From the NCBI GenBank assembly GCA_039915165.1, contig JBDSNU010000018.1:166617-230616 (forward strand): 64,000 nucleotides of DNA, written 5' to 3'. The notes below the pieces were generated by a model. It had not been told where the DNA came from and did no database searches. It saw only the letters and a program-made list of their open reading frames with translations. The translations under genes were made by a program, and so were the position numbers. The first letter of the stretch is position 1. Each line of letters opens with the position of its first letter. Source of the DNA: Minisyncoccota bacterium. Its GTDB lineage: Bacteria > Patescibacteriota > Minisyncoccia > Phycocordibacterales > UBA9973. Of this stretch, positions 27,164-43,046 are shown in pieces.

Positions 27164-27508
27164 TTAGATTGTCCGACTCATTCTTCCGTTACAGACACGA
27201 CATAGGGCCATTTTTTGTTTCTGCAGCTTTCTGAGTGAGCCCCGTTTCGCACTTCTTGCGGCTTTGCAGGTAAGACAATAAAACTCACTCCGCTTCAGTT
27301 TGGTTTTCTTTTTCAAGTCCTTTTTTCTTAGAAACTCCTTTATGTCCGAGCCAAGTATGAGGATCCGCTTTTTACCGTTAGTGATGATTGGGAGGCCGTT
27401 TTCTATCCAGCGATGGCAAGTCTTTTCACTGACCTCCAAGCTCTCTGACATTTGTTTAATCGTATAGCTCATTGAGCCATAGATTTTTTGACGGTTAATC
27501 CTTGTCAT
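27164..27508 (-). CDS. HTH + C-terminal zinc-ribbon DNA-binding protein
   Basis: 'YTIKQMSESLEVSEKTCHRWIENG' HTH; 'CLTCKAA...CRVCNG' Cys4. Confidence 0.4.
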   Translation of the reverse strand: MTRINRQKIYGSMSYTIKQMSESLEVSEKTCHRWIENGLPIITNGKKRILILGSDIKEFLRKKDLKKKTKLKRSEFYCLTCKAARSAKRGSLRKLQKQKMALCRVCNGRMSRTI

Positions 27509-27695: not shown

Positions 27696-27977
27696 TTACT
27701 CGCTGTACAGCTTGTTCTTAAGGGCTTTCAGATGGTCAAAGTATGATCTGGCTTTGACTTCCAATTTGTCGCTGAAATATTTATTGGCTACTTCTTCAAT
27801 GCCAGCTTCTTTCTTAAACACAAACAGTGCTTTGCGTGGGTCACTTTTTTGGACCGTGAGAAGCTCAAAATCCGCACAGAGGAGTGCGGCTGATACACCG
27901 AGGTCGTAGGTAGTCCATACAAACGATGGGTCATCGAGCGGTATATTGCTCGATGACGATACTTTATTACTTTTCAT
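27696..27977 (-). CDS. DUF5659-like small protein (often integrase-associated)
   Basis: 'TTYDLGVSAALLCADFELLTVQK...ALFVFKKE' pattern; 93 aa. Confidence 0.3.
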   Translation of the reverse strand: MKSNKVSSSSNIPLDDPSFVWTTYDLGVSAALLCADFELLTVQKSDPRKALFVFKKEAGIEEVANKYFSDKLEVKARSYFDHLKALKNKLYSE

Positions 27978-28154
27978 ATAGTAATGTTGTTAGGGATTTG
28001 TAATAGGGTGCATAACGACTATGCACTGTATTAATCTTGGTCTTCTAACAATGTTCTGCGTATTTCTTGTGATTTCTGGAAATAAAAAAACACCCTTGTT
28101 ATTCAAGAGTGTTTTATGGAAGCAATAGAGATTTTTTCAAGAAAAGTCACTGCA

Positions 28155-28180
28155 ATAAAAAAAGAGCCCGAAGGCTCTTG
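28155..28180 (-). terminator. rho-independent terminator (minus strand)
   Basis: hairpin agagcccgaaggctct preceded by A9 (T-tract on minus). Confidence 0.7.
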
Positions 28181-28189
28181 AGTGGTGAT

Positions 28190-29086
28190 TTAATTTGGTA
28201 ACTTTAGCTCACACTCCTTTAGCAGGATAAACTTGCTCACAAGCCCATACTTTAGGGCGAGTGTCTTAAAGTCATCAAGATGGTCTGCCCCATAGAGGAC
28301 AACGGCTTTTTTCTTGCGGCCTTTCTTCAAAAGCTCTTCTGCCGTTCTTGCAAGGGCGATTTCGTTCCTGCATCTAATCAGAAGCGGAACGAACTGGTTG
28401 ATAATCTTGGACCGAGTACTACTCGAAACGCTGTTTTCGTCCATCTTAAGGATTTCTGATTCAGCGAAGTTTATCCAATACGGGTTAGTGCCAATAACAT
28501 AGGGCTTTTGCTGGTTTTTCATAAGCCTGTCTACAACGTAGTCATACTTACGAAATCGCTCAAACACTGCAACCGCACGCTGGGCTGGGATGATCGTATC
28601 GATTCCGTACCTGAGCTTCGCGTCCTTACTTACGTCTGCAACAGTTTCCTGTACAAGGTTCTGGTATCTAATCCTGCCGTGAGCGGTAGAGTGCTCGGCC
28701 CCGATAAACAGATACTTGCTTGTATCAATAAGGTTGCCTATAGCGCATTGGCATTTGCCAATAACGGTGTCACTAACAGGCTGCTGCATACCAAATGAGC
28801 TATGAAGCATACCAATGAAATCAATCTTTACTCCCTTAATTGAGTCAAGCACTTTTGTTTCTGCTACTAAGTGCGGATAATCTGCCTTAATAGAGTCGAG
28901 CAGGGTAGCAAGTACTGGTTCTGAAAAAGCACCGAACCATTGGGGTAATTCTCCAATCGCACCTTCCGCAGCTATGGTTGCGTGCGGGGAATTTTGAAAG
29001 TCGTTTGATTGCTGTTGCTCATGGTTTTCATGGCAAGAGAAAAGGCTAAATAACAAGCCAGAGAGAAGAATAAAGACTTTTTTCAT
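28190..29086 (-). CDS. lipoprotein, TraB/GumN-family-like
   Basis: lipobox 'LLSGLLFSLFSC'; 'IDFIGMLHSSFG' and 'VLYGADHLDD' resemble the two conserved TraB/GumN motifs. Confidence 0.35.
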   Translation of the reverse strand: MKKVFILLSGLLFSLFSCHENHEQQQSNDFQNSPHATIAAEGAIGELPQWFGAFSEPVLATLLDSIKADYPHLVAETKVLDSIKGVKIDFIGMLHSSFGMQQPVSDTVIGKCQCAIGNLIDTSKYLFIGAEHSTAHGRIRYQNLVQETVADVSKDAKLRYGIDTIIPAQRAVAVFERFRKYDYVVDRLMKNQQKPYVIGTNPYWINFAESEILKMDENSVSSSTRSKIINQFVPLLIRCRNEIALARTAEELLKKGRKKKAVVLYGADHLDDFKTLALKYGLVSKFILLKECELKLPN

Positions 29087-29177
29087 ATCTTTTATTTTAT
29101 GGTTTAAGTAACTATTGTTTTCATCACAATAGCATATTTATTAAAAAAGTCAAATATAGTGCAATGAAATAAAAAGA

Positions 29178-29214
29178 AACCCCTGCTATGAAGCAAGGGG
29201 CTTTTTGTTTTTTT
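29178..29214. terminator. bidirectional terminator
   Basis: hairpin cccctgc-N7-gcaagggg with flanking A- and T-tracts. Confidence 0.6.
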
Positions 29215-29224
29215 GATCTGATTA

Positions 29225-29683
29225 CTAAGGCTGAATGTTGATAAGCTGGGAATACTGACTGGCATACATATACGATGTCGAGGACTTGGTCTGGCTTTGG
29301 TCCTGATATTGAACGATGACGTATATTTGAAATACCTTTCCAAACTGAGTGTATCCGCCAGTATTCTGGTTATCAAACCCAGGCAGCGTAAACGTCTCCG
29401 CGCCATCATCCGCAGTCCCGTCACCATCTGGTGGACCATAAATAGTCTGTGGTACTAACGGGATGTATCCACCATATGTTGTATACATTTCAGCCGTTAC
29501 GGAGCTCCCTTCGGGCATACCAGCCGTCTTCCAGGTAATCGAGATTGCGCCATGCGGATGGTACACAATATCCTTAACGCTAATCGTTATGGAAGGTGTA
29601 ATCGCTGGGTTAATAATCGTTTCTTTCTTACAAGACAGCAGGGTGGTCATTACAACCATTGCGAGTAATAGGGTTCTTTTCAT
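29225..29683 (-). CDS. lipoprotein, hypothetical
   Basis: 'MKRTLLLAMVVMTTLLSC' lipobox. Confidence 0.45.
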   Translation of the reverse strand: MKRTLLLAMVVMTTLLSCKKETIINPAITPSITISVKDIVYHPHGAISITWKTAGMPEGSSVTAEMYTTYGGYIPLVPQTIYGPPDGDGTADDGAETFTLPGFDNQNTGGYTQFGKVFQIYVIVQYQDQSQTKSSTSYMYASQYSQLINIQP

Positions 29684-29774
29684 CTTTATTGTTTTTAAGT
29701 TTGATTTTATATTAACACAATTTATATAAAAAGTCAATAGAACAAAAGCTTATCAAGTTAGCTATACTTTTGGC

Positions 29775-30629
29775 ATGAATAACAAAGTCATTGTGCCCGT
29801 CCTTATCGGTATTATTATCATCGGAGGGATGGCGTACGCTTCCATACTGAGGAAGTCTCCAACAGTAAATTCTCCAACAGCAGAGACTGCTTCTACAATA
29901 TCTCCTGCCTCTACTTCAACAGACCCTAACCAACCACAATCCGTTGCCTCAGCCACAGCTTCATCAAAAGACTGCAGTACTGACATGGGTTGTTTTATTG
30001 CTCAGGCGAATACCTGCGGTCCTGCATCCGTGGAGTTCACCGCTACCATTCTCAAGGGACTAACAGGAACTTCCCATATCGTTATTGGTAAAAGTACAAA
30101 AGCTGGCTCATGTACATTTAACCAGCGGACTGACAAGGTTACAGTGCGTGGACAGAGTGACACCTCTACAGTAGGGACCACAATAGCTTGTCCAGCTATT
30201 CCATCGGCGAAACTTGCCGCAATCCTTACCAATTGGAATGAAAGCACTTTCAGTTCTGAAGACTTCGATGGATATAACTGCAAGACCACTCTTCCAAAGG
30301 CGCTGATTGATGCAATGGCTAAGCAAGACAATACAACACCAGTTGACTCGCAGCCTGACGCCAATACTGCCCACGAGACATTCACGGGATTGGGCGAGGG
30401 CAGTTCTGTCGGTAGAAACGCATACCAGTTTTATGTATCTACAGTAACAAGTAATACAGCTACTATTAAATTGACGGGCCCAGAGGTTAACAATGTGCTT
30501 CCTCCTTCTGTTACTGTCACTCTTACGCTCAATGTTCCTCAATCATACTTAGGCTACAGCTTTACATTGACTGGTGTTAAGTATGACTACGATGAATACA
30601 TCGGAACGATAACCGTAAACCAACTATAA
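29775..30629 (+). CDS. secreted hypothetical protein
   Basis: N-terminal TM/signal, Ser/Thr/Pro linker, Cys-containing globular domain. Confidence 0.4.
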   Translation: MNNKVIVPVLIGIIIIGGMAYASILRKSPTVNSPTAETASTISPASTSTDPNQPQSVASATASSKDCSTDMGCFIAQANTCGPASVEFTATILKGLTGTSHIVIGKSTKAGSCTFNQRTDKVTVRGQSDTSTVGTTIACPAIPSAKLAAILTNWNESTFSSEDFDGYNCKTTLPKALIDAMAKQDNTTPVDSQPDANTAHETFTGLGEGSSVGRNAYQFYVSTVTSNTATIKLTGPEVNNVLPPSVTVTLTLNVPQSYLGYSFTLTGVKYDYDEYIGTITVNQL

Positions 30630-30636
30630 TAACAAT

Positions 30637-31284
30637 ATGAAAATAATAAATCAGACAGTTGATCGGATGGAATTGAAAGATGGAAGCGGAGGAAGGATTT
30701 TCTTCGGGCTCGTATTTGTTATTGCAGGTATCGGCAGTAGCTACGTTGCATATGCAAATCATACTGGCGGCTTCTTCCCATATATATTTTCAGCTGTATT
30801 TGCGGTGATAGGTTTGCTGACAGCGGTTAATGCACCCTTTATAAATGTTTCTATCGATAAGTCTGCTGGAAAAATTGTTATCAAGAAAAAGACCATGATA
30901 AGTGGCAGCAACAGTGAATACGATCTAACAAATGTTCAGACCGTGGAGCTTCGCGAGGGTACATATATCATTCAAAATAACAATGGTCAGCAACAGGGAT
31001 TTTCAATGCAATCAACTGCACAGCAGGGACTTTCGTATCAGACCATACTCGTAATGAAAGATGGAACAGAGGTACCCTTGGAAAACATTAAAAACCCATC
31101 GTCAAATTCCAATACGATAAATATCATGGGCGCAAGCACCCCCGTATTGATGGGTGGCAGGGGAGCAATGTTCGCAATATCAAATCAGGTCGCGCAGTTT
31201 ATCGGCGTTCCTTTTAAGGAAATCATGCCAAATGGTATGGCAGCAAACGCTCCTCTAGTTAATTCTTCTGAAATAGTCAATTAA
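30637..31284 (+). CDS. hypothetical membrane protein (2 TM + beta-rich domain)
   Basis: two N-terminal hydrophobic helices; 8-nt spacing to upstream gene. Confidence 0.4.
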   Translation: MKIINQTVDRMELKDGSGGRIFFGLVFVIAGIGSSYVAYANHTGGFFPYIFSAVFAVIGLLTAVNAPFINVSIDKSAGKIVIKKKTMISGSNSEYDLTNVQTVELREGTYIIQNNNGQQQGFSMQSTAQQGLSYQTILVMKDGTEVPLENIKNPSSNSNTINIMGASTPVLMGGRGAMFAISNQVAQFIGVPFKEIMPNGMAANAPLVNSSEIVN

Positions 31285-31387
31285 GACGCTCAACAACAGT
31301 CTTTGTGTGCATCCTAAGCTAGGGGTATTAAAAACAGCGTAAAGGTGTTAAATTACCCTCATCCAGTAATGGACCATTACAATTACT

Positions 31388-32776
31388 ATGAGCATCATAA
31401 AGGCCTCCGACAAACAAATACTTGAAAAGCTCTTTAAGATGGAAGAGGGATATGTACTTGGCTTTTCAGACAAAAAAATGGCTCAATTCTTTGAGGATGA
31501 GTATAAGATTGCCGTATATGATGAAAAATATAATTTTGATTTTTCTAGCAAGTCAAAGGCAAATCGTCTACGAGGCATATGGAAAAAAGAAGATGATAAA
31601 ACCGTAGGTGCTATTATTTTATCCCTTGTAGGGTGCGCGGAGAGCGACTTGTTAACAAAGGGAGGAGGAATACCGTCTTCTGAGAAAGATCTAATTAACA
31701 AAGCTCGAGACATTGGGCTCACCATGCTGTTCTCTGAATTTTCAGAAGATTCTCGACCAGAAGTTCAGGCAATGAAAAACAAGTCTCAACTCATAAAAGA
31801 GTTCAATGCCACCGATTTCAAGTCATTGGAGACAGATGAAAGAATATATCTACTTAAGGTTTTTTATTCATACTATGAGGCAATAGTTGCCGCCTATTAC
31901 GGCTCTGGTCTATTTTTTGTGAGTTCAGGCATTGATAACCTTAATGATTATTTCAAGATATTAAGAAAAAGACTGTGTGAACTGGTTGATATGGATGACA
32001 CTTTTTCAGAGATAAAAAATGGCCGATTTTATGAAGAGGTAATTGATCCTATGACCAGCCTCTATTCCAGTGCTGAATTTTTAGATGTTACATGGGATAT
32101 TATGTATCCCGCAATCATCAATTTACGAGAAGAAATAGCCGACAAGGATCTATTTGAAAATAATTCTGAAATACATAAAGTTGGTTCGGGGATTTCCAAT
32201 TTTTTGAATGAAATATCAAAAGAAATTGATACCTTAAAAAAGTATTTAAATCAAAAAACCAAGAATTTTTATGAAAAAGAAATGCCGAATACGAAGGAGC
32301 AATTTGATAACTCTTCCAATTCTAAGGATGGACAGGTCGTAAGGCATGAAGTCAAACATTTTTTTGAAAATAGCATTCAGGAAAAACCGATTGACTTACA
32401 TCATAAGCATGACAATGATACTGGTAAGAAGTCATTTTATATTACAAAAAAGGGCGACGATTTTTTCTATAAAGGTCAGTACCTGAGCCTTTCAAAAACA
32501 GCCCTTTACTACACAATCTTTTGCGCTCTTTATGCCAAACTTCCAGAGGGCGGTGAAATTACCTATGATGCCATGGGTAATGAGATCAAGAGCCGCTTGC
32601 CACTAACCAAAGGTAAAAGCTCGGAAGATATGCGGAAGTACATTCAGGACAACCTTACTGGCAATAGTAATGGATTTATGAGATATGCGAAGATACCTGA
32701 AAATGAAGATAATGGAAGACCATTAATAGAAATAGTTCGAGGTAAGGGCATTATATTTAACAACAAAAAAGGATAA
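31388..32776 (+). CDS. hypothetical protein (462 aa, cytoplasmic)
   Basis: long ORF, no recognisable motif; first unit of repeat-delimited array. Confidence 0.4.
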   Translation: MSIIKASDKQILEKLFKMEEGYVLGFSDKKMAQFFEDEYKIAVYDEKYNFDFSSKSKANRLRGIWKKEDDKTVGAIILSLVGCAESDLLTKGGGIPSSEKDLINKARDIGLTMLFSEFSEDSRPEVQAMKNKSQLIKEFNATDFKSLETDERIYLLKVFYSYYEAIVAAYYGSGLFFVSSGIDNLNDYFKILRKRLCELVDMDDTFSEIKNGRFYEEVIDPMTSLYSSAEFLDVTWDIMYPAIINLREEIADKDLFENNSEIHKVGSGISNFLNEISKEIDTLKKYLNQKTKNFYEKEMPNTKEQFDNSSNSKDGQVVRHEVKHFFENSIQEKPIDLHHKHDNDTGKKSFYITKKGDDFFYKGQYLSLSKTALYYTIFCALYAKLPEGGEITYDAMGNEIKSRLPLTKGKSSEDMRKYIQDNLTGNSNGFMRYAKIPENEDNGRPLIEIVRGKGIIFNNKKG

Positions 32777-32834
32777 TTTAGGACAGAGCTCAAGAAACAC
32801 TGGTGTGGTAATCAATAACTGCAGTTCTCACTTC

Positions 32835-32887
32835 GTCCACCAGTCCGCGCAACGAAAAAGAACCCTAGAAATAGGGTTCTTTTTCTG
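32835..32887 (+). repeat. intergenic repeat copy C (diverged) with terminator hairpin gaaccctagaaatagggttc + T-tract
   Basis: 'ccaccagtccgcgcaacgaaaaag' + hairpin matches copies A/B; hairpin identical to copy A except one base. Confidence 0.6.
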
Positions 32888-32923
32888 TAGGTAAAGCGGA
32901 ATTTGAACTGGTATACTGTGCTT

Positions 32924-33478
32924 ATGAAAAAAGTATTTATCATCCACGGTTTCGAAGGCAGTCCAAACGGCGCTTGGCGAGGATGGCTCATGTCTGAGCT
33001 TGAGAAGGATGATGTCTATGCTTGTGCATTACCTATGCCGAATCCTGAGGCACCGATCCAAAAGGAATGGGTTGATGAAATAGCGAGAGTTGTTGAGCAC
33101 AGCAAGGACGATGAATTGTATTTGGTAGGGCATAGCCTTGGATCAACCGCTATTTTGAGATACCTAGAAACAACAAAGATAATGTTTAGTGGAGTCATTC
33201 TTGTCTCTGCTCCTGTGCAAGAAACATTTAATAGAAAGATTGATAATTTCTTTCAAGTTTCATTTGACTATGAAGCTATCAAGACGAAAGTAAAGAAGAA
33301 AGTGGTTATTCACGGAGGTAATGATCCATATGTGCTTATTGAAAAACATGGTGATGTTTTGGTAAAAGAGCTTGATGCAGAATATTTTGTTATAAAAGAG
33401 GGAGGGCACCTTAATGGTTCTGCCGGTTGGCATGCATTGCCCGAGTGTCTAGAAGCTCTTAATAGAATGCTGAAATAG
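32924..33478 (+). CDS. RBBP9/YdeN-family serine hydrolase (alpha/beta fold)
   Basis: 'VFIIHGFEGSPNGAW' and nucleophile elbow 'GHSLGS'. Confidence 0.65.
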   Translation: MKKVFIIHGFEGSPNGAWRGWLMSELEKDDVYACALPMPNPEAPIQKEWVDEIARVVEHSKDDELYLVGHSLGSTAILRYLETTKIMFSGVILVSAPVQETFNRKIDNFFQVSFDYEAIKTKVKKKVVIHGGNDPYVLIEKHGDVLVKELDAEYFVIKEGGHLNGSAGWHALPECLEALNRMLK

Positions 33479-34435
33479 ATGAGTAGTTTCATTGAAAACA
33501 CACAACGATCTGAAGCCATTGCACGCATAGTCAAAACCAAAGGCTTTGATAAAAAAGTCAGCGAACTGTCAATCGCTGTCATTGATCTAAAGAATCCATC
33601 AGAAATTTTTGGAGCAAACCTTGATGCTTTTATGTATCCGGCCAGCGTGTTTAAGATCTTCATTGGGGCTGAAGTACTCAGGCAAGTAGAAGAAGGAAAA
33701 CATACTCTTGCTCAAGAGATACTAGTAAAACTCTTGAACGAAATACCGAAAGAATTGAGGCTTTATCCTGATCCTCGAACAACCCTAAAGACTGGAGACA
33801 AGGTAGCGATTGATAAGTTGCTCTATCTCATGCTTGCCGTCAGCGACAATACCGCCTCGAACTGCCTGTATGAGCTGGTAGGGATGGAAAGTATAATTAA
33901 GAATATTGTTGAGCCGAATGGATGGCAAGGTACCGGGCTTACCCCGTACTTCATCGATCAGGTTAAACAGCATAAACCATATCGCCATACCGAGATGCTG
34001 CAGACGAATGCGCGGCACGTTGCCGAGTTCTTTGCATTGGTGGAGCAGGAAAAATTGATAAGCCCATTTGTTTCAAGAAAGTTGAAGGAATATATGCTTA
34101 AGTTTGACCGCACCTCAAGGCACGGATATTCCTATCCAGAATTTCTGCGCTACAGAAAGGGCGGCTACTTGGAAACAAATCTATATACTTCTTTTTACAG
34201 AAAGAGCGGGTTTGGCTTTGATATGGTAAAAGGATTCGGTGCGCTTGTTAAAAACATTGTTACCAAAGGATGGGCGTTCCAGCGGTACATGCATGATGCG
34301 GGCGTGATAGAAGGGAAGAACTCGAAATACGTTGCTGTAATCTTTACGCTCTCAAGGCAGATGAATCCTAGAAAGTTCTTTCAAATGAATGGGTTGGCAA
34401 AAGAACTATTTGAATATATGGAAGCTCAAAGTTAA
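33479..34435 (+). CDS. class A beta-lactamase-related serine hydrolase
   Basis: SxxK 'ASVFK', SDN 'VSDNTASN'; start codon overlaps upstream stop. Confidence 0.55.
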   Translation: MSSFIENTQRSEAIARIVKTKGFDKKVSELSIAVIDLKNPSEIFGANLDAFMYPASVFKIFIGAEVLRQVEEGKHTLAQEILVKLLNEIPKELRLYPDPRTTLKTGDKVAIDKLLYLMLAVSDNTASNCLYELVGMESIIKNIVEPNGWQGTGLTPYFIDQVKQHKPYRHTEMLQTNARHVAEFFALVEQEKLISPFVSRKLKEYMLKFDRTSRHGYSYPEFLRYRKGGYLETNLYTSFYRKSGFGFDMVKGFGALVKNIVTKGWAFQRYMHDAGVIEGKNSKYVAVIFTLSRQMNPRKFFQMNGLAKELFEYMEAQS

Positions 34436-34437
34436 TT

Positions 34438-34869
34438 ATGAAAACTATTTATAAAATCGCCAACTCAATTCGTCGTATCTATTGGTACATTTTCCGTCCG
34501 CATACCCAAGGCGTTAAATGCCTTATTGAATGCAATGGAGAATATCTATTAATTCAAACAAGTTATTCAGGAAAGTATTGGACGTTGGCCGGAGGGGGTG
34601 TGGGTAGAAACGAGGGTCCTGAAACTGCTGCAATTAGGGAAGTAAATGAGGAACTTGGAATTAAGGTTGGTTCTATAAAGCAGATCGGACAGTATGAAAG
34701 CACTATTGAATATAAGAAAGATACTGTTTATTTATTTCATGCCCAAGTTTCAAGTAAGGACTTTAACTCAAACAGCACGGAGGTTTCTGATGCTCGCTGG
34801 TTTTCTAAAAAAGAATTGCCCGAGAATCGCTCAAGGGCATTGAATGAGTCAATACTTAAACAGACTTAG
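34438..34869 (+). CDS. NUDIX hydrolase
   Basis: Nudix box 'GGGVGRNEGPETAAIREVNEELGI'. Confidence 0.85.
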   Translation: MKTIYKIANSIRRIYWYIFRPHTQGVKCLIECNGEYLLIQTSYSGKYWTLAGGGVGRNEGPETAAIREVNEELGIKVGSIKQIGQYESTIEYKKDTVYLFHAQVSSKDFNSNSTEVSDARWFSKKELPENRSRALNESILKQT

Positions 34870-34887
34870 AACTGATATAATGATCTC

Positions 34888-35430
34888 ATGAAAGAAATAA
34901 TTATTATAGGAACACTTCACCACGAATTTACCCCAAAGGCCGAGCTTGAGGAAATCATCAAGGGAATCAATCCGGACAAGGTTCTTGTCGAACTGTCTCC
35001 GGAGGAGTTGCTTCGGCCTCGAGAGGATTCTATCCGTGACGAGATGTTCTTCGCCCACGACTGGGCCGTTGAAAATGGTAAGCAGGTAGACGTATTCGAT
35101 ATCGAAAACCATACGCTTAAGGATGGCTTTACTGGAAGAGAGGTAGGTTTAATCCAGCTAGGTTCCGAGATGGGGGAATTACTGAAGGTGCATTCATGGA
35201 AAGAGCAGAACAGCGAGAATGCCTGGAAGACTCCAGAATATACTAAAGTAAATGATCTTATAATGGAAAAATACTTTAACAGTGAAAAGCTCGAGGAAAG
35301 GAATCAGACAATGCTGCAAAACATCAAGGACAAGGTCATCGAGGGAAAGAACCTTGTGATTGCAGGCACGGCGCACCTTACGTTTTTCAAGGAGCAGCTG
35401 CCGAACGCTATACTGCCGTTGAGGAAGTAG
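34888..35430 (+). CDS. TraB-family protein (short form)
   Basis: 'IIIGTLHH' and 'LVIAGTAHL' conserved TraB/GumN motifs. Confidence 0.55.
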   Translation: MKEIIIIGTLHHEFTPKAELEEIIKGINPDKVLVELSPEELLRPREDSIRDEMFFAHDWAVENGKQVDVFDIENHTLKDGFTGREVGLIQLGSEMGELLKVHSWKEQNSENAWKTPEYTKVNDLIMEKYFNSEKLEERNQTMLQNIKDKVIEGKNLVIAGTAHLTFFKEQLPNAILPLRK

Positions 35431-35433
35431 TTT

Positions 35434-35587
35434 TTAAATTCGGCACATATACAAACCCCTTATACTCCCGTATCCTAGTTCCAACTGCCTCCGCCAGGGC
35501 GCGCACATTGTCCGCCATAGTCACGTCTGACGTGACGAAGGACGAAGGAGGAACGAAAAAGAACCCTAGGAATAGGGTTCTTTTTCT
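35434..35587 (+). repeat. intergenic repeat copy A (with 44-nt insertion bearing palindrome gtcacgtctgacgtgac) + terminator hairpin gaaccctaggaatagggttc
   Basis: ~65-nt 5' module ~80% identical to copy B; shared 'ccagggcgcgca(a)cgaaaaa'+hairpin+TTTTTC. Confidence 0.7.
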
Positions 35588-35636
35588 ATTGGGTTAAGTA
35601 GACCCTTTTGACTTTCTGCAAAATTACTATAGTGTA

Positions 35637-36218
35637 ATGGAAATAAACAATTTCGTACAATTAAAAAATAATCTAATGACCGAACAAGACGTACTAACGC
35701 TTATTTCAAATGATCCATGGATGATGGAAGTGCTTCGCGCTGCGGAAACACTTCATTTACCACAATGGGCGATCGGTGCAGGATTTGTCCGTAATAAAGT
35801 CTGGAATGAATTATCTAGCTATTCTAATAGAGTTCATTCTACAGATATTGATCTCATCTATTTTGATCCTACAAATACTAACGAGGAAGTAGAAAAGGAT
35901 TATGACCGACTGCTAAGGGATATTATAAACGTAGAATGGTCTACGAAAAACCAAGCACGAATGTATTTAGTTGATAATGAAAAACCCTATTCTTCTACAG
36001 TAGATGCATTAGCTCACTGGCCTGAAACGGCTACCGCTATTGCTGTAACTATTGAAGATGGAACATTAAAACTTATTGCTTCTTATGGAATTCATGATCT
36101 TGTAAATCTTATTGTGCGACCGTGTCCAAAATTTAATAAGGGAATGGAGAGGGTAAAAGAACGAATGGAAAAGAAGAAGTGGCTTGAGCAATGGCCTGGT
36201 CTAACGTTAGAAAATTAA
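35637..36218 (+). CDS. uncharacterised nucleotidyltransferase-family protein (PF06042-like)
   Basis: 'WAIGAGFVRNKVWNELS' and 'DIDLIYFD' motifs. Confidence 0.4.
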   Translation: MEINNFVQLKNNLMTEQDVLTLISNDPWMMEVLRAAETLHLPQWAIGAGFVRNKVWNELSSYSNRVHSTDIDLIYFDPTNTNEEVEKDYDRLLRDIINVEWSTKNQARMYLVDNEKPYSSTVDALAHWPETATAIAVTIEDGTLKLIASYGIHDLVNLIVRPCPKFNKGMERVKERMEKKKWLEQWPGLTLEN

Positions 36219-36245
36219 ATCCTTACAATACTTTGTGAGGATTTT

Positions 36246-36353
36246 TTCAATTCTGGAACATATACAAAACCTCTATATTCCCTTATCCTAGTTCCAACAG
36301 CCTCTACCAGGGCGCGCAACGAAAAACACCCTTCAAATGAAGGGTGTTTTTCT
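36246..36353 (+). repeat. intergenic repeat copy B + terminator hairpin cacccttcaaatgaagggtg
   Basis: 'ttcaattctggaacatatacaaaacctctatattcccttatcctagttccaacagcctctaccagggcgcgcaacgaaaaa' + hairpin + TTTTTC. Confidence 0.7.
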
Positions 36354-36400
36354 ATGGTAAATGTTATAATTTAAGTAATTATTATTTAGCCTTTTATTTT

Positions 36401-37825
36401 ATGACTTCACCAGAAGGTTCCCATTCAGCCCAAGAAAATGCTCTCCCATATTCAGTAGAGAAAATTGAAGATTTGCAGCGTCCTGAAGTTGGGGTTAAAT
36501 CCAATCAGCTGCTCATTAATGGCGAAGTGCTTGGTGGATATAAACATGTGAGTGATGTCAGTCCTCAAAAAAATAATTCAGATTTAGTGTATTTTAATGC
36601 AGTGAAAGAAGGGGAAGAAAGTAGTTATAACACTGGACGTATCATCGACATTAACAACCCCGAAAAAGAATTAGTAACTATTACAGCTTCTGACAATAGA
36701 AACTATAGAGATAGTAAAAAATTTTTTGTTAATGGTAACGAGTGGAATTCATTGCAAGGCAAAAATATATACTTTAGTGGCTATCACGTTGAGCATGATC
36801 CCATTGGTAATAAAACAGTATTTAGAGCACACAAAGATCATGCTATAAACGGTTCCAAAGCAGCAGTAATAGTTAACAACCGTGAATGGAATACTGGCTT
36901 TAGTGAGATTCAAAAAGCCACCAGTGAATATGGTACAGCCTATGCTTTGGCTGATGGCAGATTGGTTATTGAAGATAAAGAATGGTTGTATCCAAAATAT
37001 TCTGAACAGCAGAAAAAAGATAATTACAGTCTCAACTGGAATGGGTTAGACACAATATCTGAGGCCCGAATTGGTAAAAACGGTGAAGTTGCAGCAGCAC
37101 TGTATACCACTCGAGGTGAAGGTCGTGATGGTATTGGTAGCTATATTATCACTGGAGATACACAAGGTGCACGCAACGAATGGAAGCACCCATTACAATT
37201 TGTAAAAGATATTGCTATTGATGAAGTAACAGGAATGGTTGCTGCATATGGTTCAAAATTTGGTGCTCGTAATAAGACAGAAATTATTATTAATGATATT
37301 CCTTATACAGTTGAAGATGCTCCGGAAAAATTAAACTATTTTACATTCAAAGACGGCGCACTTGTTATTGAATATACAGATGCATTAGGTCAAAAGGTCG
37401 CAGAAAAAATTACTCTCAATGAGCAATCTGGTGAATTACAAATAATGAAAGAGGGGAAGGATAGTGAAGAAAAAGCTTTGTATGAATTACGTAAAATGTT
37501 AGCAGAGCAAAACATTCCTATTTCAGAAATCATGTCACGATTGAACACCGCCACTCTTTTGGAAGAACAGCAAAAAAATAATAAAAATTTAGCTAATAAT
37601 TTTGATACCGTACACAGTCAAAAAGCGACCCTAGAAATTGAATTGCAAAAACAACAAGCACTTATTGCTGAAAAAGACGCAAGAATAATAAGCCTAGAAC
37701 AAGATAAGGCAAAAGCTGAAGACAGAATTAATACCATTAAGGCATCAATCAGTGCGGCTGACTCTGCAATGATGGGTGGATATAAGATCTCAAAAGAAGT
37801 AAGAAATAATATTCTGAATACTTAA
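36401..37825 (+). CDS. hypothetical protein with C-terminal coiled coil
   Basis: ORF frame opens with GTG inside upstream terminator; first ATG at 36401; last ~100 aa heptad-rich. Confidence 0.4.
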   Translation: MTSPEGSHSAQENALPYSVEKIEDLQRPEVGVKSNQLLINGEVLGGYKHVSDVSPQKNNSDLVYFNAVKEGEESSYNTGRIIDINNPEKELVTITASDNRNYRDSKKFFVNGNEWNSLQGKNIYFSGYHVEHDPIGNKTVFRAHKDHAINGSKAAVIVNNREWNTGFSEIQKATSEYGTAYALADGRLVIEDKEWLYPKYSEQQKKDNYSLNWNGLDTISEARIGKNGEVAAALYTTRGEGRDGIGSYIITGDTQGARNEWKHPLQFVKDIAIDEVTGMVAAYGSKFGARNKTEIIINDIPYTVEDAPEKLNYFTFKDGALVIEYTDALGQKVAEKITLNEQSGELQIMKEGKDSEEKALYELRKMLAEQNIPISEIMSRLNTATLLEEQQKNNKNLANNFDTVHSQKATLEIELQKQQALIAEKDARIISLEQDKAKAEDRINTIKASISAADSAMMGGYKISKEVRNNILNT

Positions 37826-37873: not shown

Positions 37874-38599
37874 ATGAATAAAATAATTTTAATCGTACTC
37901 GCTATTCTCATTATCGGAACTGGAGCGTATCTTGTTACAAAAAATGACACCATGGATACAGTACCTGCAGCCACTATTGTAGATACTACGCCAGTACCTG
38001 TTACTCCAATTGAGAATCCTACTCCAGCCACGACCGATACCACGCCTTCAGTGTCTTGGTTAACATACACAAACGCTGATTACGGTTTCAGTTTTCAATA
38101 TCCAAGTACCTGGAAATTATCTGAAGATAAAACAAAGAAAAGTGTAACAATCAAAACTGTAGAATATAGCGCTGCTGTTGAAAAAAATGATATTGATTAC
38201 GAATCAATTACATTCCAAGCAACAACAAAAGCATTCTTCACTCCCCACCTCGGTACAAAGTACGGAGAAATTGCATATGATGACAAGCAGGGAGCAATCG
38301 TAGATGTGTCATCATCTCCAGTTCGTTGTCTCGACACTTCAACATTGTTAAGCGGTCTCCATCAGATTACTACTGCAATCAAAACAATTCCTTATTCAGG
38401 TAGTTTAATGGCAACGCCAGCATATAGTGATGCAGCAATCTTAACAAAGAACGGTAGCATTATTATTGTTACAGAAAATAATGAACCAAGCACAAAGACC
38501 ACTGCCTCAAATCTGATCACTGCAAATGTAAAAACAATTGCGAATTCATTTACATTGCTTGGTGGTAATACGGTAGTAACCCCTGCGTGCTCGAAGTAA
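37874..38599 (+). CDS. secreted hypothetical protein
   Basis: N-terminal TM 'IILIVLAILIIGTGAYLV', Thr/Pro linker. Confidence 0.4.
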   Translation: MNKIILIVLAILIIGTGAYLVTKNDTMDTVPAATIVDTTPVPVTPIENPTPATTDTTPSVSWLTYTNADYGFSFQYPSTWKLSEDKTKKSVTIKTVEYSAAVEKNDIDYESITFQATTKAFFTPHLGTKYGEIAYDDKQGAIVDVSSSPVRCLDTSTLLSGLHQITTAIKTIPYSGSLMATPAYSDAAILTKNGSIIIVTENNEPSTKTTASNLITANVKTIANSFTLLGGNTVVTPACSK

Positions 38600-38637: not shown

Positions 38638-38892
38638 ATGTATATGTATTACGGATATTTTGACCTCGTTGATTCTATGTACCACATCTTGGGATGGGTA
38701 TTGTTTATTATGTTTATCGTGTGGATTGTTCGCGGAGCTCGCGGACGTCACCATAGTAGATGGTGTGATGGCACAAGCTGTAACCACCCAGTACATGGCA
38801 ATACTCGTGCTATTGATCTCTTGAAGGAACGCTATGCAAAAGGGGAGATTGATACTAAGGAATTCGAAGAAAAAAAGAAAAATTTGATGTAA
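38638..38892 (+). CDS. SHOCT-domain small membrane protein
   Basis: TM then 'IDLLKERYAKGEIDTKEFEEKKKNL'. Confidence 0.55.
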   Translation: MYMYYGYFDLVDSMYHILGWVLFIMFIVWIVRGARGRHHSRWCDGTSCNHPVHGNTRAIDLLKERYAKGEIDTKEFEEKKKNLM

Positions 38893-38910
38893 TATCAGTT
38901 TTTCTGTAAA

Positions 38911-38945
38911 AAGTCGTCTCAATACTGTGAGGCGGCTTTTTGTTT
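38911..38945 (+). terminator. rho-independent terminator
   Basis: imperfect hairpin gtcgtctca-N6-tgaggcggc + TTTTTGTTTT. Confidence 0.5.
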
Positions 38946-38962
38946 TGAAATCACCAATAAGG

Positions 38963-38991
38963 TTGACAATTAAAAGCAATGGTGTTATCAT
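38963..38991 (+). promoter_or_regulatory. sigma70-like promoter (TTGACA-17-TATCAT) upstream of DEAD-box helicase
   Basis: consensus -35 with 17-nt spacer and near-consensus -10. Confidence 0.45.
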
Positions 38992-39074
38992 AGTGGTATT
39001 ACTATACGTATTGTGTTGATGGACTATTTCTGAAGTCTGAATGACACAGTAATAGAAAATAAATAACAATATAT

Positions 39075-40466
39075 ATGACAACGACTAGCGCTCCTCGGGG
39101 CAATAATTTTTCTCGTTCTGAGGGTTCTTCTTCAGGGCGTCGCAGTGAAGGGGGTTCATTCTCTCCTCGCTCAAACAGTAACGGTGGTGGATTTTCATCA
39201 CGACCTCGCTTCGGTGGAGGTGGCAATAGTGGCGGTAACGGCGGTGGATATCGCGGAGGCAACTCTTCTGGCGGTTTTAATAGAGGAGGTTCGAACACTT
39301 CGCCTCGCCGTAGTTTTAACGGAGGCGGGTCTTTTGGTGGCAACAAGCGTCGCTCATTTAAAGGCGACAACATCGACGAAACACGTTTCGTTAATCGCGC
39401 AGTAGATAACGTAGAAGAAGTTGCACACATTGCAAAACACACATTTGCTGACTTCGGTGTACACGAAATGCTTGCTAAGAACTTAGCAGCAAAAGGCTAT
39501 GTACAACCTTCACCAATTCAAGATCAGGCTATCCCTGTAGCATTGCAGGGTGGTGATGTGATTGGTATTGCAAACACTGGTACTGGTAAAACAGCAGCGT
39601 TTCTTATTCCTATCATCAACAAATTGGTAAGTGATAAGAACCACAAAGTAATGGTACTTACTCCTACTCGTGAACTAGCACAACAGATCGAAACAGAATT
39701 TCGTTCTATGACTGTTGGTATGCGTCTATGGTCAGTATCTGCAGTTGGTGGACTTCCTATCATGCGCCAGATCCGTTCATTGGAAATGGGTGTGCATATC
39801 GTGATCGGTACACCTGGACGTGTGAAAGATCTTATTGCTCGCAATAAAATCAACATGGCTCAGTACAGTACTATCGTTCTTGATGAAGCTGACCGTATGA
39901 TGGATATGGGATTCATTGATGACATGCGCATGATCCTTGGTGGTATGCCAAAAGATCGTCAGAGTCTTTTCTTCTCTGCAACATTCTCTCCAGAAATCCG
40001 TACTCTTTGTAATGACTTTTTGAATAATCCTACAACTGTAGCAATCAAGACTCGTGATACTGCTTCAAACGTTGATCAGGATATCATCCGTGCTCACCCA
40101 GCTGATCGTGTTGAAAAACTTCATGACTTGCTTACTTTGCCAGAATTTACAAAAGTATTGATCTTCCGCGAAACAAAGCATCACACAGATGAACTTGCTC
40201 GTGAATTGAAAGATCGTGGGTTTGCAGTTTCTGCATTGCACGGCGACATGCGTTCTCGTGAACGTTCTCGTGCTGTGGAAGCATTGTCAAAAGGACAGAT
40301 CCAAGCAGTGATCGCAACTGACGTTGCAGCTCGTGGTATTGATATCCCAGATATCTCTCACGTGATCAACTTCGATACACCTTCAACATACGACACCTAT
40401 GTTCACCGAATCGGCCGTACTGGTCGTGGTAACAAAAAGGGTATTGCGCTAACATTCGTTCGCTAA
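39075..40466 (+). CDS. DEAD-box ATP-dependent RNA helicase with N-terminal Gly/Ser/Arg-rich tail
   Basis: Q-motif, 'ANTGTGKTAAF', 'VLDEADRM', 'SAT', 'HRIGRTGRG'. Confidence 0.9.
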   Translation: MTTTSAPRGNNFSRSEGSSSGRRSEGGSFSPRSNSNGGGFSSRPRFGGGGNSGGNGGGYRGGNSSGGFNRGGSNTSPRRSFNGGGSFGGNKRRSFKGDNIDETRFVNRAVDNVEEVAHIAKHTFADFGVHEMLAKNLAAKGYVQPSPIQDQAIPVALQGGDVIGIANTGTGKTAAFLIPIINKLVSDKNHKVMVLTPTRELAQQIETEFRSMTVGMRLWSVSAVGGLPIMRQIRSLEMGVHIVIGTPGRVKDLIARNKINMAQYSTIVLDEADRMMDMGFIDDMRMILGGMPKDRQSLFFSATFSPEIRTLCNDFLNNPTTVAIKTRDTASNVDQDIIRAHPADRVEKLHDLLTLPEFTKVLIFRETKHHTDELARELKDRGFAVSALHGDMRSRERSRAVEALSKGQIQAVIATDVAARGIDIPDISHVINFDTPSTYDTYVHRIGRTGRGNKKGIALTFVR

Positions 40467-40475
40467 TACAAATAG

Positions 40476-40508
40476 AAAACACTCCGGATACTGTCCGGGG
40501 TGTTTTTG
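40476..40508 (+). terminator. rho-independent terminator
   Basis: hairpin cactccgga-tactg-tccggggtg + TTTTTGT. Confidence 0.7.
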
Positions 40509-40519
40509 TATGGAACAAT

Positions 40520-40543
40520 TGTGCGTTACTAAGCAAAGCACAT
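40520..40543 (+). repeat. REP-like palindromic repeat L1 (tgtgcgttactaagcaaagcacat)
   Basis: near-identical to copy at 41251 and inverted relative to 40588 copy. Confidence 0.7.
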
Positions 40544-40587
40544 TTATAAAATATTCATATATATTTGATGGGTAGTTTTCTACAATA

Positions 40588-40612
40588 ATGTGCTTTGCTT
40601 AGCAACGCACAT
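40588..40612 (-). repeat. REP-like repeat L2 (inverted copy, atgtgctttgcttagcaacgcacat)
   Basis: reverse complement of L1 with 1 mismatch; abuts transposase ATG. Confidence 0.7.
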
Positions 40613-41251
40613 ATGAGAAAAGAAAAAATAACAACAGGAGAGTATTATCATATTTATAATAGAGGTATACATAAACAAACGATATTTCATGATCGTTCGG
40701 ATTATGCACGCTTTCTTTTTCTTGTGCTCTATTTTCAATCAGAAGTAATTTTAAAGAATGTCTCGAGGATGATTATTGGATATTTGAAAAATATGTACTT
40801 TTCTATACAAAATAAAGATTTACAAGAAATACTTCATCATAAAACAATTGAAATAATTGCATTTTGTATTATGCCAAATCATTTTCACATTCTGATTAAA
40901 CAATTAAAAGATGACGGTACTTCATCATATATGCACCGCGTACTGGGAGGGTATTCAAGATACTATAACAATAAATATGGTACAACTGGGCATATATTTC
41001 AAGCAACATACAAATCTGTACTCGTAAAAAATAATATTCAACTGCTCTACCTAACAGCATATATTCATAGAAATCCTCGCTCGCTATCTCTTTGGTATGG
41101 AAAAGAATTGCAGTATGAATGGTCTAGTTATCAAGATTATTGTGGAACTAATCGGTTTGGCGAGCTTGTATTATTCTCTGTTATCCTCAATCAATTTCAT
41201 CTTAAAAGCGCATACTATTCATTTGTTGAATCAAGTCCCGCAAAAGAGTAA
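40613..41251 (+). CDS. IS200/IS605-type Y1 (HUH) transposase, REP-associated (RAYT-like)
   Basis: HUH 'MPNHFHILI'; catalytic Tyr context 'AYIHRNP'; flanked by REP-like repeats. Confidence 0.65.
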   Translation: MRKEKITTGEYYHIYNRGIHKQTIFHDRSDYARFLFLVLYFQSEVILKNVSRMIIGYLKNMYFSIQNKDLQEILHHKTIEIIAFCIMPNHFHILIKQLKDDGTSSYMHRVLGGYSRYYNNKYGTTGHIFQATYKSVLVKNNIQLLYLTAYIHRNPRSLSLWYGKELQYEWSSYQDYCGTNRFGELVLFSVILNQFHLKSAYYSFVESSPAKE

Positions 41252-41275
41252 TGTGCGTTGCTAAGCAAAGCACAT
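41251..41275 (+). repeat. REP-like repeat R1 (atgtgcgttgctaagcaaagcacat)
   Basis: same orientation as L1, 1 mismatch; begins at the transposase stop. Confidence 0.7.
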
Positions 41276-41347
41276 CCTATGGAGGTTTTTGTTTTCTTGA
41301 CTAAAAAACTGACAATGGTAAGGTGAAGAAAACAAAAAATTACCACT

Positions 41348-41701
41348 ATGGCAGACTTGAAAAAAGTAGTACTGAAAGAATACTCTGATCGGATTATAAA
41401 ATTTGTTCCTTCGGATGAAATCAATGGATGTAGTGAAATCATCCCAGATCAAAAAACAAAAGTTGTTGTACACGAAAAAACGTACCGAGGTGAATCTATA
41501 TATGATCCTGGGTTGGAAGATAGTGTAAAAGTCAGAAATATTACCGCAGCAGACGTTGCTGCTATTCTGGCAAACAATGGAGAATGTTTTGTCCAAGTTA
41601 ATCACAATGGAGAATTACGAATGCCTAGTAATGGTTCTGGTCGCAAAATGCTGGTGATACATTTAACCAAGGAAGTAGTTACTGAAGGTCTTGCTAGTTA
41701 A
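41348..41701 (+). CDS. hypothetical protein
   Basis: 117-aa ORF with terminator-like hairpin downstream. Confidence 0.35.
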   Translation: MADLKKVVLKEYSDRIIKFVPSDEINGCSEIIPDQKTKVVVHEKTYRGESIYDPGLEDSVKVRNITAADVAAILANNGECFVQVNHNGELRMPSNGSGRKMLVIHLTKEVVTEGLAS

Positions 41702-41746
41702 CTGTGTACTAAACCCTCGCTATTCGTAGTGGGGGTTTTATTATTG

Positions 41747-41819
41747 AGCCGTTGATCGGGATTGAACCGATGACCTCATTCTTACCATGAATGTGCTCTA
41801 CCAACTGAGCTACAACGGC
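41747..41819 (-). tRNA. tRNA-Thr (GGT)
   Basis: acceptor GCCGTTG/CAACGGC, anticodon stem CATTC/GAATG loop ATGGTAA, T-arm ATCGG-TTCAATC-CCGAT. Confidence 0.8.
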
Positions 41820-41935
41820 GAGCGAAAGATATTCAGGAGCTTGCTCATGGAATATCAGAGCGAAGCCGTTGCAGTGATAGCTACAACGGCAGACTAATAC
41901 TACCTACTTCCTCGCTCCTAAAAGATACCACGACT

Positions 41936-41980
41936 AATAAAAAACGCCACTTATTTTTAATAAGTGGCGTTGTCTGTTTT
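41936..41980 (-). terminator. rho-independent terminator (for minus gene 41991-42566; also hairpin+T on plus)
   Basis: hairpin acgccacttatt-ttt-aataagtggcgt between A7 and T-rich tract. Confidence 0.7.
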
Positions 41981-41990
41981 AGCTAACGAT

Positions 41991-42566
41991 TTAATAATCG
42001 ATAGCAAAGGACTTTGCGGCCTGAAACACTGAATACTTTCGCCGTTGTAAAAGTTTCCGGTCTTTTAGAAAAACTTTTACTAACGCAAATGCTTCATATA
42101 CCACAGAGCGCCAATACTTTCTAGTCGGTGCCCCAACAAAGTGGATAGTAAATCCACCAATCAGTGACCAAATGTACTCAATCCTTATTTGATGTGTTTT
42201 TGAGGAAACAACAAATAATTCATCCACATTGAGCTCTTCCAGGAATAGGGCAGTAGCAAGGCTTTCATTTGAGGTGTTCCACACATCAGGTCCGATTAGA
42301 GTGATAGTAGGAATGTAACTAATACTGCCATTGTTGTACAGTGCCGTCAGATCAGATTGTAGTCGATCTCCCGTTAGTGCTTTCAATTGAGGATAACTGG
42401 CGTAAATAGGATGACTGCCCGCAGCAAGCAAAATTTCGAATCGATACTCAGTATGAGTAGTGATGAAACCCCGTAGCTCTTTTTTGCGGAATAAACTTTC
42501 GAGACCCAAACGGGTTCCTTTATAGCAGGTATCCCCGCCATAAAGAAGAATATAGGTTTTTTTCAA
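41991..42566 (-). CDS. YdcF/DUF218-family protein
   Basis: 'ILLYGGD' and 'FVVSSKTHQIR' DUF218-like motifs. Confidence 0.45.
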   Translation of the reverse strand: MKKTYILLYGGDTCYKGTRLGLESLFRKKELRGFITTHTEYRFEILLAAGSHPIYASYPQLKALTGDRLQSDLTALYNNGSISYIPTITLIGPDVWNTSNESLATALFLEELNVDELFVVSSKTHQIRIEYIWSLIGGFTIHFVGAPTRKYWRSVVYEAFALVKVFLKDRKLLQRRKYSVFQAAKSFAIDY

Positions 42567-43037: not shown

Positions 43038-43046
43038 ATGTAAAAT

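Follow-up and report, generated by a model that had tools for sequence, protein, structure and literature searches.

The window analysed here, a 64-kb stretch of Patescibacteria DNA, carries two large open reading frames (ORFs), coding for protein A of 462 aa and protein B of 474 aa, which an earlier note on this DNA had described as orphan cargo of a repeat-delimited mobile array lying next to recombinases. Named homologs place the source organism in the Patescibacteria/Paceibacterota (candidate phyla radiation, CPR), a group that accounts for a large share of bacterial diversity and most of whose genes are unannotated. Both ORFs are real and, as had been noted, contain no recognisable motif, neither A nor B having a match in Pfam (even at E ≤ 10), NCBIfam, PADLOC or PHROGs. 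Recombinases are indeed located nearby, namely a large serine recombinase (LSR) and a tyrosine integrase (Table 1), and the idea of a mobile island is borne out by the 3' end of the LSR ORF, which overlaps the opposite-strand tRNA-Asp gene by 40 nt, as its counterparts do in relatives. A and B lie in the outer part of a genomic island of about 13–15 kb at tRNA-Asp in a Paceibacteria (CPR) genome, and an LSR element put this island beside the tRNA gene. We propose, with moderate confidence, that A serves a recurrent integrative element of the CPR as its DNA-binding, sensor-coupled switch and is not part of its cargo.

Protein A turned out not to be an orphan, as a homology search returned 131 clusters, all of them unnamed or from CPR bins. 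Viral contigs in IMG/VR contained no relative of the family, and a sequence-profile search of the PDB with the A alignment gave nothing at E ≤ 10. A start codon at position 31388 is backed by conserved residues 4–17 in the homologs and by the conserved leader ATTACAATTACTATG. In the AlphaFold2 model of A (109-sequence alignment; predicted local distance difference test score, pLDDT, of 88) a helical N-domain and a four-helix-bundle-like domain are followed by a His-rich disordered linker and a C-terminal alpha/beta domain. In this predicted model the C-terminal domain shows an N-terminal beta-sheet, three helices including a recognition helix and a C-terminal beta-hairpin wing, the arrangement of an OmpR/PhoB-type winged helix. 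A gave no match to the Trans_reg_C profile (Pfam, E ≤ 10) and is not a sequence member of that family; it gave no match to Response_reg either and, as its N-terminal 311 residues are all-helical, they do not constitute a receiver domain.

The A family is modular, residues 1–120, 120–340 and 316–462 each being found with unrelated partners. In the relative P0064 an AbiTii domain (E 1.6e-33, 117 bits) is fused directly before an A-type middle domain, and four other proteins (P0086, P0103, P0110 and P0119) share only the C-terminus of A and display an AbiJ_NTD3 match at 16–20 bits, below the cutoff of 32.5 bits. AbiTii and AbiJ-NTD are N-terminal sensor domains of abortive-infection (Abi/HEPN) proteins (Anantharaman et al. 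2013, PMC3710099). Six AbiTii proteins of about 295 aa from plasmids end in low-complexity or hydrophobic tails, not in HEPN domains. The middle domain of A contains a nearly invariant motif E-N-x-S-E-x-H (aa 257–263), and within the predicted disorder of the linker the motif K-H-E-H-T-H-x-F-E-N-S-I-Q-E-K is conserved. This His-rich motif coincides exactly with the point at which three unrelated C-terminal modules replace one another, and it is deleted in family members of 428–431 aa; it may mark a recombination junction or serve as a metal or processing site. Neighbouring ORFs of the window were considered as possible paralogs of A and rejected, hhalign showing no relation of w298, w111, w284, w215 or other window ORFs to the A family.

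The genomic context of A was compared, with clustering of ORFs, in 15 species-representative genome loci and in the contigs of selected homologs (L004, L007, L033 and L035). In all 15 genome loci and in the four contigs, a gene for a DUF5659 protein directly follows the A-family gene on the same strand, and wherever the contig is long enough an LSR gene overlapping the 3' end of a tRNA gene comes downstream. The order is A-family gene, its own terminator, an intergenic control region, DUF5659, an ORF of 54–74 aa, a variable gene and the LSR gene, the variable gene encoding a 393-aa protein, a 458-aa protein, a 724-aa Toprim/DnaG-like primase (Pfam) or an HTH_17 protein together with a tyrosine integrase. 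A-family genes, with their conserved leader and their own terminator, form a transcription unit of their own. The first slot is occupied by A-family proteins whatever their domain composition, including P0064 with its AbiTii domain and P0086 with its AbiJ_NTD3-like segment. Given that the family is always found in this same conserved slot, A is a core gene of the element, and the description of A as cargo has to be dropped. The leader ATTACAATTACTATG (window 31373–31390) lies directly 5' of A-family start codons and a Shine-Dalgarno sequence is not evident; the start of DUF5659 is preceded by the related sequence ...ATTACTATG, and at the DUF5659-leader position of L035 (9655–9687) CATTACAAGT occurs three times over.

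The overlap of about 40 nt between LSR gene and tRNA gene recurs in 7 related loci, the tRNA being tRNA-Asp in the window and in L007, L017, L018 and L023, tRNA-Glu in L010, and tRNA-His in L021 and L022. These three tRNAs serve different recombinase clades. The window LSR shares 45–77% identity with the recombinases downstream of A homologs (10 loci), and the window tyrosine integrase is 85% identical to the counterpart in L013, where the gene order is the same. Together the elements make up a family of integrative elements that target tRNA genes.

In about half of the loci a gene pair for a Type III restriction endonuclease (REase)-like helicase and a Type III methyltransferase (MTase) is divergent from the A-family gene (PADLOC: MTase_III 1.6e-74, REase_III 2.5e-18). 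A reverse transcriptase (RVT_1) and a weak bAvd-like small protein are located beside this Type III restriction-modification (R-M) cargo in L035 (1–726), L007 (718–2152) and L017 (4339–5727), and the pair may be a diversity-generating retroelement. The enrichment for defence suspected in the earlier note thus holds in part, as A-family relatives co-occur with Type III R-M and have slot-mates with AbiTii, but PADLOC places no defence-system model on A, B or their neighbours in the window, save for generic helicase matches (the backbone DEAD-box gene).

Such surroundings might also be expected if A were an abortive-infection-type anti-phage defence cargo, its N-terminal and middle domains sensing a phage component and the remainder acting as effector, for example by shutting off transcription of phage or host through DNA binding, or by means of a hidden HEPN-like RNase within the bundle of helices. 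The slot-mates with AbiTii (P0064) or weak AbiJ_NTD3-like segments, the divergent Type III R-M genes and a module shuffling typical of conflict proteins all speak for this explanation, and E-N-x-S-E-x-H loosely recalls HEPN families that keep the His, without the Arg. The tentative HEPN idea for the middle domain draws on this motif and on the AbiTii fusion. A itself contains neither an AbiTii nor an AbiJ-NTD domain (Pfam), and we do not class it with the Abi or HEPN proteins. An Abi-like defence role is the chief alternative to a switch, and we regard it as rather unlikely for A.

The control region between the terminator of A and DUF5659 contains a box of three direct repeats with 10-bp periodicity, GAAAT-N5-GAAAT-N5-GAAC. 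Among the 36 loci searched, each box-bearing locus has exactly one such box and has it at that position only. The box of the window, GAAATCACAAGAAATACGCAGAAC, is the sole exact copy in 64 kb and was matched in 0 of 100 shuffles. All 12 distinct loci with a winged-helix A homolog, the window included, contain the box, which is exact in 9 of them and has 1–2 changes in L011, L021 and L035; it is absent from all 7 loci lacking the winged helix. Loci with other C-termini bear different repeats, GTGATTTTTCACCC or GTGACTCAC. A second C-terminal type, present in about 30 family members including P0064, goes with the motif GTGATTT(T)TC(A/G)CCC (L014, L016, L017, L018 and L033), and a third type goes with GTGACTCAC...GTGGCTCAC (L015). 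In L022 a 987-aa protein matches only the middle domain of A, and both the winged helix and the GAAAT box are missing. No homology among the three types of C-terminal module was detectable by hhalign.

A comparison of L007 with L018 shows where the exchange takes place. The two loci are collinear, with 76–79% nucleotide identity from the start of A to the tRNA, except for about 590 bp that comprise precisely the C-terminal module of A, the terminator and the box. C-terminal module and box are exchanged together as a unit. The type of box is independent of the N-terminus of the A-family protein: P0086, with an AbiJ_NTD3-like N-terminus and a winged helix, comes with the GAAAT box, and P0064, with an AbiTii N-terminus and the alternative C-terminus, comes with the other box. 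OmpR/PhoB domains classically bind direct repeats arranged in tandem at a spacing of one helical turn. From this geometry and from the co-variation, the C-terminal module is therefore inferred to be the DNA-recognition part and the box its operator, which on the basis of sequence would be a predicted operator ahead of the operon that runs from DUF5659 to the recombinase. A palindrome is also present in the 5' region of DUF5659 (28008–28026, −; GTGCATA-N5-TATGCAC in the window), and L007 (11505–11530) and equivalent positions carry a palindrome, an alternative form with compensatory differences being ATGAGAG-N7-CTCTCAT; it may serve as a second operator or form a structure in the RNA.

A winged-helix protein encoded next to tandem direct repeats, together with the Toprim/DnaG-like primase that some relatives have in the variable slot, would also suit a replication initiator binding iteron-like repeats at an origin. 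We consider this very unlikely, as the repeats, only about three of 10 bp, fall well short of typical iterons in both number and length, neither an AT-rich nor a DnaA-box region was noted, the large exchangeable sensor-like N-terminal modules and the Abi-domain slot-mates do not fit Rep proteins, and many elements, this one included, are without any replication gene.

In the window the element is rearranged. The closest relative of its recombination module is L013, with 75% nucleotide identity. Using blastn, window positions 28149–23816 align to L013 from 11023, 2 nt past the stop codon of the L013 A gene, through the recombinase, and window positions 31835–32776, which cover the 3' part of A and end at its stop codon, align in the opposite orientation to the end of the L013 A gene (11020). 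A has been flipped and moved 4.6 kb away from the box, a breakpoint falling no more than 2 nt from its stop codon, and its original terminator, the box and the palindrome stay ahead of DUF5659. A single inversion of about 28150–32779 would bring back the canonical order, the breakpoint being fixed only at the stop codon of A; a search at the inversion breakpoints gave no convincing inverted repeats. The proposed inverted segment also contains w298, w284 and w215, whose translations have signal-peptide or transmembrane features and for which neither a protein-family match nor a homolog in any related locus examined was found. The Type III R-M system of relatives is absent from the window island.

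Taken as a switch, A would work in the following way. Its OmpR/PhoB-like winged helix most likely binds the three GAAAT-type repeats at 10-bp spacing, and these repeats, just past the A terminator, would lie in the promoter region of the operon formed by DUF5659, the small ORF, a replication or integrase gene and the LSR gene. The N-terminal and middle helical domains, which in relatives are swapped for other modules including AbiTii, would provide the signal input, so that A would set the time at which the integration/excision module comes to expression, much as a one-component regulator does or, in a satellite or phage, the master repressor. After the inversion A would still be able to act on the box in trans.

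Several points weigh against this proposal. C-terminal module and box are physically adjacent, so their co-variation could stem from a single recombination tract, that is from linkage and not from function, and the loci are phylogenetically related and not independent. A scan of the region for sigma-70 promoters stayed at chance level and no promoter was assigned. With a single-copy box, autoregulation is not evident. Whether A represses or activates, and in response to which signal, we infer rather than observe, as we do its DNA binding and its regulatory role. Through the inversion A may have lost its coupling to the element, which may be decaying in this genome. Finally, a second copy of the tRNA-Asp 3' half, expected as a distal attachment-site (att)/tRNA remnant, was not found in the 64 kb at ≤6 errors; serine recombinases need only a 2-bp core, and the missing remnant is not decisive.

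The repeats that had been taken to delimit an array do exist, in the form of three copies of an intergenic unit of 64–110 nt, and they proved to be terminator units, not cassette recombination sites. Each one is composed of a conserved block of about 30 nt (AGTTCCAAC.GCCTC..CCAGGGCGCGCAACG) followed by a strong intrinsic terminator hairpin with U-tract. No further copies were found in the 64 kb, nor in related loci save those of the same strain; Rfam gave only sub-threshold chance matches for the repeats and the region, and the imperfect palindromes of attC architecture (R''/L''-L'/R') are not present in the repeats. An origin as remnants of tRNA 3' ends was also considered and rejected, pairing of a T-arm being impossible on inspection. 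Judged by their sequence, the repeats appear to be common terminator modules, a role as recombination sites being undemonstrated. It is only because of the inversion of A that copy 1 follows this gene.

A cassette array, integron-like or of another type, with attC-like repeats and with A and B as captured cassettes, could account for three related repeats splitting gene blocks that are all on one strand and for a tyrosine recombinase about 5 kb away. We consider it extremely improbable. The units are conserved blocks with canonical terminator hairpins whose stems carry compensatory changes, they lack attC palindromes and Rfam matches and number only three, one supposed cassette contains four genes, the tyrosine integrase is part of a conserved recombinase module common to L013 and L033, and A adjoins copy 1 only through the inversion. 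An integron was rejected on its defining features, attC sites and an intI gene beside attI with cassettes.

Protein B starts at the ATG at 36401, the mechanical ORF beginning at the GTG at 36344. Its AlphaFold2 model, obtained with 8 sequences (pLDDT 79.5, predicted template modelling score 0.65), comprises a beta-propeller, a toroidal array of about six or seven 4-stranded blades in the predicted structure, and a long helical coiled coil at residues 343–456, where the earlier note had correctly noticed one. Against a viral structure library only generic propeller matches were obtained, with TM ≤ 0.32. B is no orphan either, an exhaustive profile search yielding 49 representatives at 50% clustering, nearly all of 450–560 aa and of the same architecture. 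These representatives contain no Pfam domain beyond spurious coiled-coil matches, a profile re-search for homologs added nothing, and a scan of metagenomes for B loci gave two short loci only. B has neither a signal peptide nor a transmembrane segment and is absent from all A-element loci compared and from IMG/VR. The model suggests a cytoplasmic propeller on a coiled-coil stalk, which would most likely be an oligomeric protein-binding scaffold or sensor.

In L001 the corresponding place upstream of the SHOCT-DEAD-BipA backbone is taken by a B homolog that is only 44% identical to B, whereas the flanking backbone proteins are 95% (BipA), 93% (FtsE), 88% (DEAD helicase) and 80–84% (others) identical. 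The divergence of B thus does not follow that of the genome. On either side of B the DNA is non-homologous between the window and L001, and in L001 a Type III R-M system and helicases lie upstream, directly beside B. In a distant genome (L032; GatA 54% identical) a B of 41% identity is located between tmRNA-smpB and ftsH-gatCA, and in L031 B comes next after tRNA-Leu; no partner gene is conserved across the B loci compared. B is either fast-evolving or repeatedly replaced, always beside tRNA/tmRNA hot spots used by islands. Its low identity could come from xenolog replacement and not from fast evolution. B is situated where the variable region meets the SHOCT-DEAD-BipA backbone, a link to the mobile element being undemonstrated, and its hypervariability at a conserved position is no more than compatible with a role in conflict or host interaction.

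It is possible, if doubtful, that B is island cargo with a role in defence or host interaction, its propeller recognising a variable phage or host-cell protein and diversifying for that reason. The 44% identity between 80–95% identical flanks, the non-homologous variable DNA around B in both genomes, the Type III R-M genes and helicases directly beside it in L001 and its position elsewhere next to tRNA/tmRNA hot spots favour such a role, but B lacks a signal peptide, a transmembrane segment and any enzymatic or effector domain, gives no match in PADLOC, is found neither in A-element loci nor in IMG/VR, keeps a constant architecture over the 49 representatives and has housekeeping neighbours in L032 (smpB, ftsH and gatCA).

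The genes around A and B are listed in Table 1. For the cargo enzyme operon at 32903–35430 homologs were absent among the related loci compared. Between tRNA-Met and tRNA-Asp a small ORF for a GIY-YIG nuclease (23565–23804; Pfam E 5.1e-11) is directly preceded by a fragment resembling a tRNA 5' half (23531–23556), and the two may be the remnant of a homing endonuclease or intron in the tRNA cluster; Rfam revealed no group I intron at 23531–23804. Farther downstream, an ORF for a MazF/PemK toxin (45015–45401, −; Pfam E 5.7e-10) is flanked by an exact 25-nt direct repeat (44899–44923 and 45467–45491) that duplicates the 3' end of BipA, and in L001 the gap between BipA and a methyltransferase gene measures only 55 nt; by its sequence the MazF/PemK segment looks like a small insertion with target duplication. 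A gene resembling Y1_Tnp/REP-associated tyrosine transposases (40595–41251), situated between the DEAD helicase gene and the inverted tRNA-Thr, is missing from the equivalent position of L001, where tRNA-Thr is on the other strand.

Table 1. Positions of genes, protein domains and intergenic elements in the 64-kb window.
Feature	Position	Strand	Basis or remark
gatA	21071–22471	+	
199-aa protein	22479–23078	+	directly after gatA
Cluster of two tRNA-Met genes and tRNA-Asp	23129–23869	mixed	
tRNA-Asp(GTC)	23795–23869	+	integration target; ARAGORN and Rfam
Large serine recombinase (LSR), 549 aa	23830–25479	−	terminal gene of element; Pfam Resolvase, Recombinase, Zn_ribbon_recom
Tyrosine integrase, 371 aa	25692–26807	−	variable slot of element; Pfam Phage_integrase
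HTH_17 (excisionase-like) protein	27164–27508	−	Pfam HTH_17, E 2.3e-07; homologs in L013, L019
DUF5659 protein	27696–27977	−	Pfam PF18903, E 3.2e-10
Orphaned 3' flank of A gene, ahead of DUF5659	27978–28149	−	terminator, box and palindrome
Tandem-repeat box within orphaned flank	28053–28076	−	sequence
A terminator within orphaned flank	28087–28115	−	terminator scan
w298, lipoprotein-like	28190–29086	−	inside proposed inverted segment with A
w284, membrane or secreted protein	29775–30629	+	inside proposed inverted segment with A
w215, membrane or secreted protein	30637–31284	+	inside proposed inverted segment with A
Protein A, 462 aa	31388–32776	+	
A, helical N-domain (aa 1–115)	31388–31732	+	AlphaFold2
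A, four-helix-bundle-like domain (aa 124–311)	31757–32320	+	AlphaFold2
A, His-rich disordered linker (aa 315–346)	32330–32425	+	AlphaFold2
A, predicted OmpR/PhoB-type winged helix, alpha/beta (aa 350–462)	32435–32773	+	AlphaFold2
Repeat copy 1	32823–32886	+	conserved block and terminator hairpin
Ser_hydrolase (cargo enzyme operon)	32903–33478	+	Pfam
Beta-lactamase2 (cargo enzyme operon)	33479–34435	+	Pfam
NUDIX (cargo enzyme operon)	34438–34869	+	Pfam
TraB/GumN-like protein (cargo enzyme operon)	34888–35430	+	Pfam
Repeat copy 2	35431–35587	+	carries 46-nt insertion
NTP_transf_6 nucleotidyltransferase (cargo)	35637–36218	+	Pfam E 1.7e-51
Repeat copy 3	36244–36353	+	stem sequence differs by compensatory changes, pairing kept
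Protein B, 474 aa	36401–37825	+	
B, beta-propeller, all-beta, about 25 strands (aa 17–339)	36449–37417	+	AlphaFold2
B, long helical coiled coil, about 115 aa (aa 343–456)	37427–37768	+	AlphaFold2
Secreted 241-aa protein	37874–38599	+	
SHOCT protein, start of conserved backbone	38638–38892	+	60% identity to L001
DEAD-box helicase, conserved backbone	39075–40466	+	88% identity to L001
SHOCT, DEAD-box helicase, Y1_Tnp, tRNA-Thr (−), BipA	38638–44922	+	order of SHOCT, DEAD-box helicase and BipA as in L001

To our knowledge, almost nothing is known about how mobile elements of the CPR are built or controlled, and we know of no mobile-element regulation characterised in the phylum. With the present comparison a supposed orphan becomes the signature gene of a recurrent and well-delimited family of elements, marked by a tRNA target, an LSR, DUF5659, an A-family protein and often Type III R-M, and the combination of A family, DUF5659 and recombinase could help to find and delimit islands in metagenome bins of the CPR. 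Winged helix and GAAAT tandem-repeat box are proposed as a concrete candidate protein-DNA pair, and the slot-mates of A suggest that sensor domains of the Abi type can feed into transcriptional outputs instead of killing. The extreme divergence of B between near-identical backbones makes it a candidate conflict or interaction gene, of relevance to a lifestyle that depends on host contact. More speculatively, and at present improbable as a whole, the A-family slot proteins might be a new class of Patescibacteria mobile-element switches, in which exchangeable sensors, Abi-type ones among them, are combined with exchangeable DNA-binding outputs and matched operators, so that detection of phage or stress would turn on excision and replication of an LSR island targeting a tRNA gene, by a Stl-like logic of independent origin, with B possibly being a diversifying recognition protein of the same conflict.

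Compared with OmpR/PhoB regulators (Trans_reg_C of KdpE, PhoP and CpxR), A has no detectable sequence similarity, no receiver domain and no histidine kinase partner; its input is a novel helical N-domain with a four-helix bundle, and its gene, by contrast, belongs to a mobile element. With AbiTii/AbiJ-NTD proteins (PMC3710099) the family shares the combination of a variable N-terminal sensor with an exchangeable C-terminal output, and slot-mates of A begin with AbiTii (strong match) or an AbiJ_NTD3-like segment (weak match), whereas A has neither domain and its predicted output is DNA binding and not a HEPN RNase or other nuclease. B is similar to WD40-like propellers with a coiled-coil extension, having about six or seven blades and then a long helical stalk.

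In their organisation the elements as a whole resemble tycheposons and other integrative genetic elements that target tRNA genes (Hackl et al., bioRxiv 10.1101/2020.12.28.424599), being likewise 10–20 kb long, with one end formed by a site-specific recombinase gene beside a tRNA, and having an optional small replication module, variable cargo, a hot spot building a larger variable island and associated inversions. They differ in their host phylum, here Patescibacteria, in their hallmark genes, the A family and DUF5659 not being those reported for tycheposons, and in their recombinase, as the LSR, a rare alternative to the tyrosine recombinase in tycheposons (bioRxiv 10.1101/2020.12.28.424599), is the rule in the present elements.

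The comparison with Stl of Staphylococcus aureus pathogenicity islands and phage-inducible chromosomal islands (SaPI/PICI), and with lambda CI, has limits. Packaging or capsid-interference genes (terS, capsid morphogenesis) were found neither in the window island nor in related loci, so that the element does not qualify as a PICI, and the A family is not found in IMG/VR viral contigs. A would bind DNA by a winged helix and not by a Cro/CI-type helix-turn-helix, and it is co-directional with the operon it would control. Like Stl and CI, however, A is a predicted DNA-binding protein whose gene adjoins the module for integration, excision and replication of a small integrative island. Outside its predicted DNA-binding part the protein varies and, in relatives, consists of Abi domains that sense phage, and its DNA-binding module and candidate operator are exchanged together, as immunity regions are, a resemblance that is one of logic only.

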